Sequence record: AF056275.1
From: a phage
Strand: one strand, 5' to 3'
Length of the DNA stretch: 870 bases
Shown here: positions 1-870 of the stretch, piece after piece
How positions within the stretch are numbered: position 1 is the first letter of the stretch
Layout of the letters: every line of letters begins with the position of its first letter
Program-made: the position numbers and the translations under genes
The notes under the pieces: generated by a model
Databases searched by the model: none
What the model was told of the DNA's origin: nothing
What the model saw: the letters and a program-made list of their open reading frames with translations, nothing else

Positions 1-28
1 GCGTTTCTTTGNCGNNCNATTTATTACT

Positions 29-808
29 ATGATTATTTCCGCAGAAAAACAAACCGTTATCCTGAAAATGGCCGCTGACTTTAATTTCTATGGTAAACGT
101 CTGCGCGCCACTAAACTGGAAGTCTGCGACGATATATCAAAGGCGGTCTATGATACTACAAAACACTCGACCGCGATTTGTGATTGGTTGGAAGCAAATA
201 AACCAGCTAAACCGAAAGCGGCGAAAGTAGCAAAAGCCATTAAAAACGATGAGCGCCCAGAAGCGGCGGGGATTGTTTCTAGCACGGTTGAAAGCTGGGA
301 AGTAAAGCAGGGTAAACGCTTTATTATTACGTCGATTCAGAATAATACTTCNCCGCATAAAAACTTTTTAGCCTCACTGGAGCAATTTGCTAAATATATC
401 GGCGCTGATTTGCTGGTTAGCAAGTTTATTTATAACAAAAACGGTTTTCAAAATGGCGANGGCGCCGAAGGAATCAAATATGATTCCGCATTTGACAAAT
501 ATATCTGCAATAAAAACGTGTTTTTGAATAATCGCCGTTTTGCTTTCATGGCTGAAATNNACGTTTTACCTNCCGCAGATTNTCCGCNGTGTNGANTTNC
601 TGAANCTNCAACCGCGCTCAACCTNGANNGTTTAGCAAGTGGAACNGCTGAAATNACNGNCNAGAGNGTCCCANCTTTAAANGATGNAGTGGNGNGCNGT
701 ATGTATTCANCNCGCACGGCAACGTCTNCCCNAAGACATCCCAGCAGAAAGCATCATAGAAAGNGGNAGAGTTGGATAATTTNGNTGCGATTGNGTGTGG
801 AGNTNTAG
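29..808 (+). CDS. Hypothetical protein of unrecognised family. ATG at 29; the frame is also open upstream to the window edge. The 3' end is uncertain because the stop lies in N-rich sequence.
   Basis: In the clean region there are about 175 consecutive sense codons (nt 29-555) with no stop, where a stop would be expected roughly every 20 codons at this composition. Synonymous codon choice is strongly biased: Lys is AAA 18 times and AAG 3 times in residues 1-170, Leu is mostly CTG, Arg is CGT/CGC. Two ambiguous codons resolve regardless of the N: TCN at 350-352 is Ser and GAN at 458-460 is Asp or Glu. The first codon that could hide a stop is NGA at 593-595. The annotated TAG at 806-808 is surrounded by N calls. 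No family assignment could be made by eye. Confidence 0.75.
   Translation: MIISAEKQTVILKMAADFNFYGKRLRATKLEVCDDISKAVYDTTKHSTAICDWLEANKPAKPKAAKVAKAIKNDERPEAAGIVSSTVESWEVKQGKRFIITSIQNNTXPHKNFLASLEQFAKYIGADLLVSKFIYNKNGFQNGXGAEGIKYDSAFDKYICNKNVFLNNRRFAFMAEXXVLPXADXPXCXXXEXXTALNXXXLASGXAEXXXXXVPXLXDXVXXXMYSXRTATSXXRHPSRKHHRKXXSWIIXXRLXVEX
194..271 (+). other. Segment encoding a Lys/Ala/Pro-rich basic low-complexity linker (residues 56-81, ANKPAKPKAAKVAKAIKNDERPEAAG) between the N-terminal and C-terminal regions.
   Basis: Read directly from clean sequence: codons gca aat aaa cca gct aaa ccg aaa gcg gcg aaa gta gca aaa gcc att aaa aac gat gag cgc cca gaa gcg gcg ggg. The composition resembles flexible inter-domain hinges and basic AK-rich tails seen in some nucleic-acid-binding proteins. 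Confidence 0.5.
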
Positions 809-870
809 NNGACTNAAAGTGGTATCNNTACNGGAANTNATTGTNTGTCCANGTANCNAGCAAAGGAAAC

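Follow-up and report, generated by a model that had tools for sequence, protein, structure and literature searches.

The window analysed here, a stretch of 870 bases, is, as judged by sequence identity, the 5' part of gene A1 of phage BF23 (Tequintavirus, Demerecviridae) or of a nearly identical strain. We consider it highly likely that it encodes the front of a four-part protein, in which a C-terminal domain would act as a metal-dependent DNase, a middle domain would be its non-catalytic partner, and an N-terminal module would provide contacts. The gene in the read is already known, and the only element that is possibly new is a degenerate second metallophosphoesterase fold, predicted from a structure model.

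When the window was compared with 50,697 phage records by megablast, 252 records were matched. The best was Escherichia phage BF23 (OR083247.1), where the features under the match are annotated as 'left terminal repeat' and 'DNA transfer protein A1'. Over the clean part (positions 20–550), identity to BF23 was 99.2%, compared with 95.7% for the next-best phage, OSYSP. With N's treated as neutral, only two true mismatches were left in this part (351 and 538), and given this number and the level of identity, the read derives from BF23 or a nearly identical strain. At codon 108 (350–352), the read has TCN, an apparent Ser108, in place of TTC for Phe in BF23; the mismatch at 351 is next to an N at 352, which makes a base-call error probable. 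The translation quoted by the sequence-only reading is correct except for this residue. At position 538 (codon 170), the read has CGT and BF23 CGC, which leaves the amino acid unchanged and may reflect a genuine strain difference. The A1 gene of BF23 has 554 codons (L001:3010–4674; positions 1397–3061 of OR083247.1) and lies between A2 (L001:2242–2658) and dmp (5214–5948), all three in the left terminal repeat; this placement is by identity to BF23, the read itself having no flanking genes. The terminal repeat of BF23 is the 'first-step transfer' DNA, the first to enter the cell. Just upstream of A1 in BF23, a 65-aa ORF followed by a predicted terminator (BF23_00004, L001 2716–2913) is labelled 'A1 precursor protein'. 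It does not overlap the read, and its label looks like a propagated annotation oddity.

The 870-base sequence looks like a single-pass sequencing read of low quality. We counted 4 N's in bases 1–50, 2 in bases 51–550, and then 4–11 per 50 bases to the end, with 14 N's in positions 801–870. Local alignment to BF23 with N's neutral revealed 1-base insertions at 725, 740, and 795 and a deletion after 807, which bears out the earlier warning that the 3' half was unreliable. An ATG-initiated open frame is found at 29–808. Its assignment as a coding frame stands as far as position 724, covering residues 1–232 of A1; in 2,000 shuffles of this part, no open run of 232 codons was obtained, the longest being 201. 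In view of the indels and the high N density, the terminal ~27 residues of the listed ORF (233–259) and its TAG are not real. Nor is the gene window-filling, as the sequence-only reading had it: the window holds less than half of A1, and about 290 codons lie beyond the artefactual stop. The tail of the read should fall within A1, at about residues 262–280. At the other end, the first 19 bases (GCGTTTCTTTGNCGNNCNA) do not match the sequence upstream of A1 in BF23 (TTAATCCCTTTAATGGAGC). They are outside the gene and are either base-calling noise or a vector, primer, or cloning junction. As a consequence of this mismatch, the native GGAG ribosome-binding site is missing from the read. The mismatch points to an insert, cloned or made by PCR, that starts near base 20, or to mere noise at the read start. 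A chimeric read was ruled out, since positions 20–813 are collinear with BF23 and have no join inside. The features of the window are collected in Table 1.

Table 1. Features of the 870-base window, in order of position
Feature	Position	Strand	Remarks
Read start, unmatched to BF23	1–19	no strand	4 N's; compared directly with L001 (BF23) upstream; alignment begins at 20
End of A1 5' untranslated leader, 9 bases, TTTATTACT	20–28	+	Identical to BF23
Gene A1 codons 1–232, true frame	29–724	+	tblastn of BF23 A1 residues 1–232, one frame, E 1e-127
N-terminal three-helix domain, aa 5–56	41–196	+	AF2 helices 5–17, 26–41, 44–56, pLDDT 90–98
Basic Ala/Lys/Pro-rich linker, aa 57–85	197–283	+	Low pLDDT; gappy alignment
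Middle domain, aa 86–232 (first two-thirds of aa 86–296)	284–724	+	Predicted metallophosphoesterase fold
Loop TSIQNNTFPH, aa 101–110, at metallophosphoesterase motif I (DxH) position	329–358	+	Follows strand 97–104
Loop YNKNGFQN, aa 135–142, at motif II position	431–454	+	Follows strand 127–133
Loop LPTADYPLSG, aa 180–189, at motif III position	566–595	+	Follows strand 171–174; N's leave it partly readable
A1 continuation, about aa 233–261, frame lost	725–813	+	Indels and N's; tblastn match ends at 724
Artefactual TAG 'stop' of the listed ORF	806–808	+	Out of true frame; N's at 803, 805, 809, 810
Unalignable low-quality tail	814–870	no strand	Alignment to BF23 ends at 813

The sequence-only reading could name no family for the protein and took a hit below E 1e-10 to a well-characterised family as the sign of an ordinary one. 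In fact, residues 8–176 of the read protein matched positions 8–166 of phrog_1745, 'DNA transfer protein', at E 9.3e-53, and full-length BF23 A1 (residues 8–553) matched positions 8–540 of 542 at E 1.8e-243. Hundreds of phage genomes annotate homologues as A1 or DNA transfer protein, and 790 homologues at E ≤ 0.001 were found among 8,000 candidates scored. With Pfam, NCBIfam, and PDB sequences, in contrast, no family was found. Pfam gave only DUF4899 for the read protein and full-length A1 (E 0.025 and 0.14), which we rejected as a chance match, both scores being far under the cut-off. NCBIfam gave nothing for full-length A1 and, for the read part, only NarM (E 0.086), likewise rejected because its 13 bits fall short of the 110-bit cut-off. 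A PDB sequence search with the single protein returned only matches at E > 0.4 (formate-THF ligase, JNK kinases), all rejected. With the profile of 89 sequences, one marginal match was obtained, to 3-dehydroquinate dehydratase (E 0.0012), the others being designed proteins; this match is confined to a 70-residue helical stretch and is spurious. With the middle-domain profile, the PDB search gave nothing at E ≤ 10.

For conservation we used an alignment of 89 homologues, 41–90% identical to the first sequence, and for structure an AF2 model of P0001, a T5-type protein 95% identical to BF23 A1 with the same numbering through residue 320. The model is confident, with a mean pLDDT of 93 and a pTM of 0.83. 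It agrees with the layout of a small N-terminal domain, a basic AK-rich hinge, and a larger region that had been read from the letters: helices occupy residues 5–56, confidence is low at 57–85, and a folded alpha/beta body starts at residue 86. The full-length predicted structure matches the metallophosphoesterase fold.

Beyond the readable part, the C-terminal domain (aa 297–554) has a beta-alpha-beta-alpha-beta sandwich fold in the predicted structure. Scored against the canonical set DxH, GDxxD, GNH(D/E), H, and GHxH, all five metallophosphoesterase motifs are present and are invariant in the 89 homologues, namely GD304xH306, HD340xxD343, SNHD395–398, H476, and GH501xH503, with His in motif II and Ser in motif III where Gly is usual. 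High-scoring structural neighbours include the nucleases PolD DP1, SbcD, and Mre11, and the hit list also has MJ0936, YfcE, LpxH, and PP5. We infer from the model that this is a canonical two-metal metallophosphoesterase domain of the Mre11/SbcD/PolD-DP1 structural type. Pfam Metallophos was not among the 25 families listed for the 89 members, nor was it found for BF23 A1 or P0001 singly, and each non-HTH Pfam family was matched by at most 3 of the 89 members at E ≤ 1. Annotation based on Pfam overlooks this family, for which a dedicated model could be worthwhile.

The middle domain (aa 86–296) likewise adopts a metallophosphoesterase fold in the predicted structure, and it is predicted to be a degenerate one, without the canonical metal-binding motifs. 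In the 89 homologues, no conserved Asp was found in the loops at the motif I–III positions. The loop at motif I has invariant Q104 and T107, with T101, N105, N106, and H110 conserved in at least 90% of homologues; that at motif II has invariant Y135, with N136, F140, Q141, and N142 at 90% or above; and that at motif III has the conserved set L180-P181-T182...P186-L187.G189, in which P181 and P186 are invariant. Further conserved residues are T228-G229..T232..N235-Y236, after strand 223–230, and H249, with N235, Y236, and H249 invariant. Since the canonical motifs are lacking, the domain is not to be classed as an active member of the metallophosphoesterases. An hhalign comparison of the middle- and C-terminal-domain profiles gave a probability of 0.2% and E 0.3, which lends no support to an internal duplication at the sequence level; any duplication would be ancient. 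When the middle-domain profile was searched exhaustively, 1,786 representative clusters were matched at E ≤ 0.001. The best 150 of them are nearly all proteins of 500–600 aa with the domain at about residues 50–300, and the shorter ones are probably fragments; within these 150, sequence comparison indicates that the middle domain essentially always accompanies the C-terminal domain. Residue 206 (644–646, in the N-rich region of the read) is His in at least 90% of the family (PHAK or GHAK) and Ala in BF23 and in the modelled P0001 (GAAK). Hence, His206 is not essential for middle-domain function in the T5/BF23 lineage.

Within A1, conservation in the 89-homologue alignment is lowest in the N-terminal module. 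In the P0001 model, a 2-residue turn separates its second and third helices (26–41 and 44–56), a geometry that is only suggestive of an HTH, and no HTH profile matched the BF23/T5-type module at E ≤ 10. In five distant homologues, about 45% identical overall (P0068, P0070, P0078, P0083, and P0084), residues ~5–45 matched HTH_23, CENP-B_N, or HTH_7 above the Pfam cut-off, with scores of 27.7, 27.5, and 27.5 bits, respectively. Homology between these HTH-type domains and the T5-type domain was not detected by hhalign (probability 0.1%). In the homologue of Agrobacterium phage Alfirin, only about 36 residues precede the middle domain in the annotated protein, so that the module is apparently absent there. 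The N-terminal module of the A1 family is interchangeable, being an HTH, an unrelated-looking three-helix domain, or seemingly nothing. The linker that follows is predicted to be disordered, with a pLDDT of 57–68 at residues 61–80 and below 50 at 66–68 in the P0001 model, and its length and sequence vary across the family.

The family extends well past the T5-like phages. A tblastn search with the middle domain matched 1,125 phage records, 599 of them at less than 60% identity, and the matches include phages of Vibrio, Flavobacterium, Caulobacter, Rhizobium, and Cellulophaga as well as jumbo phages. In Alfirin (Autographiviridae, T7-like; L005, OR997969.1), the A1 homologue (3893–5404) is located inside the replication module, between the genes for primase, helicase, and ATPase and those for ligase and DNA polymerase. 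In a Flavobacterium Elemovirus podophage (L004, MT497078.1), the homologue at 3770–5359 is annotated as 'A1-like protein', and on a 72.7-kb metagenomic contig (L002) the homologue at 6001–7602 is found near genes for topoisomerase II, ribonucleotide reductase, and a ClpP-like protein. This wide distribution, together with the gene neighbours, speaks for a two-domain core whose general role is to degrade or process DNA. Participation in DNA transfer would in that case be a specialisation of the T5 lineage, and the name 'DNA transfer protein', inherited from there, probably misleads when applied to phages that are not T5-like.

[quoted passage not shown] The earlier suggestion of a poorly characterised phage or plasmid accessory protein is therefore apt as to a poorly characterised phage protein and wrong as to accessory. 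In the same work, A1 is called a 'predicted metallo-phosphatase' that has structural features common to nucleases of double-strand-break repair and polymerase proofreading, an in vitro nuclease assay is still to come, and activation of a host nuclease is named as an alternative (bioRxiv 10.64898/2026.04.02.716235). A1 mutants show no host DNA degradation, no shut-off of host or pre-early expression, and no entry of the remaining genome (bioRxiv 10.1101/866236). This last step, second-step transfer, needs A1 and A2 jointly, and A1 associates with A2 and membranes according to the older literature reviewed there (bioRxiv 10.1101/866236). Our literature search found no solved structure of A1, and 'predicted metallo-phosphatase' was the only domain description.

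We propose that A1 may be built from a three-helix module, a disordered basic linker, a degenerate metallophosphoesterase fold, and a canonical metallophosphoesterase domain, of which the readable part would encode the first two and most of the third. Most likely, the C-terminal domain would be a metal-dependent DNase that cuts host DNA directly. The middle domain would pack against it and, being non-catalytic, may hold DNA or brace the active domain, by analogy with the part that the second subunit plays in Mre11/SbcD dimers. Flexibly tethered, the N-terminal module could add contacts to DNA or to partners such as A2, RNA polymerase, or the membrane.

A different account of chromosome destruction would make A1 a phosphatase, a phosphodiesterase, or a regulator that turns on a host nuclease. 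It was raised by the authors of the 2026 preprint themselves, in vitro nuclease activity of A1 being undemonstrated, and many proteins of the metallophosphoesterase fold, MJ0936, YfcE, LpxH, and PP5 among them, are indeed phosphatases or nucleotide phosphodiesterases. We nevertheless regard it as unlikely, since A1 alone suffices for degradation in both E. coli F and DH5alpha and the nucleases PolD DP1, SbcD, and Mre11 are among its high-scoring structural neighbours; moreover, phages that infect Vibrio, Flavobacterium, Caulobacter, and Agrobacterium also carry homologues, and across such varied hosts one shared host nuclease as the target is less likely. In Davison's model (bioRxiv 10.1101/866236), A1 is a site-specific, restriction-type endonuclease with sites in host DNA and none in the first-step-transfer DNA, which together with A2 cleaves a site in phage DNA and so frees the injection block. 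That model explains both the escape of phage DNA and the joint need for A1 and A2 in second-step transfer, and the N-terminal helical module, a true HTH in distant relatives, could give DNA recognition. Yet no PD-(D/E)xK, HNH, or GIY-YIG fold or motif was found, the sole catalytic-looking site being that of a two-metal phosphoesterase. With the N-terminal module the least conserved part and apparently missing in some homologues, and with the family also present outside Demerecviridae, we hold a restriction-type A1 to be very improbable.

Within the two-fold picture, the middle domain could itself be enzymatically active, with an active site of a non-canonical kind, rather than a passive scaffold. 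Its invariant Q104, T107, Y135, N235, Y236, and H249, with N105, N106, H110, N136, Q141, and N142 at 90% or more, lie in loops after strands, the usual location of a metallophosphoesterase active site, and these polar residues match the C-terminal catalytic motifs in conservation. Three points speak against a second activity and leave it rather improbable: the motif I–III positions have no conserved acidic metal ligands, the His found at residue 206 in most of the family is replaced by Ala in BF23 and P0001, and the best structural matches include the inactive Vps29 and Pol delta subunit 2. The notion that the read represents a new, unplaceable family, or else an artefact or chimera, drew on the empty Pfam, NCBIfam, and PDB-sequence results and on the unreliable 3' third of the read. 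It has next to no probability against 99.2% identity to a sequenced phage genome with collinearity over 20–813, the abundance of homologues (790, with 1,125 phage records carrying the middle domain), and confident structure predictions. A directly acting C-terminal DNase with a non-catalytic middle partner is the reading that we prefer.

A1 has been known genetically since the 1970s, and it brings about one of the fastest destructions of a host chromosome known. Two puzzles surround it: how T5 DNA escapes, and how A1 restarts DNA transfer. If the two-fold architecture is true, the degenerate domain would be an element of DNA handling or specificity, and it might help to solve the old puzzle of why the unmodified DNA of T5 survives while that of the host is destroyed. 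The domain-level picture of A1 singles out particular residues, in a family that reaches well past T5-like phages.

Compared with known systems, the protein encoded here is the same as the T5/BF23 pre-early protein A1 (PHROG 1745); there is no biological difference, the only differences being Ser108, a probable miscall, and the synonymous change at 538. Mre11/SbcD and archaeal PolD DP1 are calcineurin-like metallophosphoesterase nucleases, and the A1 C-terminal domain appears in the model to be of the same structural type, although neither Pfam nor PDB profile searches detected sequence similarity between them. Unlike these nucleases, A1 would have a second fold without metal ligands, and it is this degenerate domain, not the catalytic one, that the read encodes. 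Inactive scaffolds of the same fold are also known, namely Vps29 and the B-subunits of eukaryotic DNA polymerases alpha, delta, and epsilon. The A1 middle domain differs from them in having its own conserved polar loops (QNNT..H, YN...FQN, and TG..T..NY) and in sharing its chain with a domain of the same fold that is apparently active; its identity to structural matches is 4–13%, and 8–11% to Vps29 and the polymerase B-subunits, levels that do not imply common descent. No description of the two-fold architecture was found in the searchable literature, and researchers working on A1 may well know of it already. We suggest tentatively, on the basis of the structure model and with less than even confidence, that A1-type proteins carry two metallophosphoesterase folds in one chain, one degenerate with an invariant Gln/Asn/Thr/Tyr set in place of the Asp/His metal ligands and one catalytic, as an intramolecular mimic of the Mre11/SbcD dimer.
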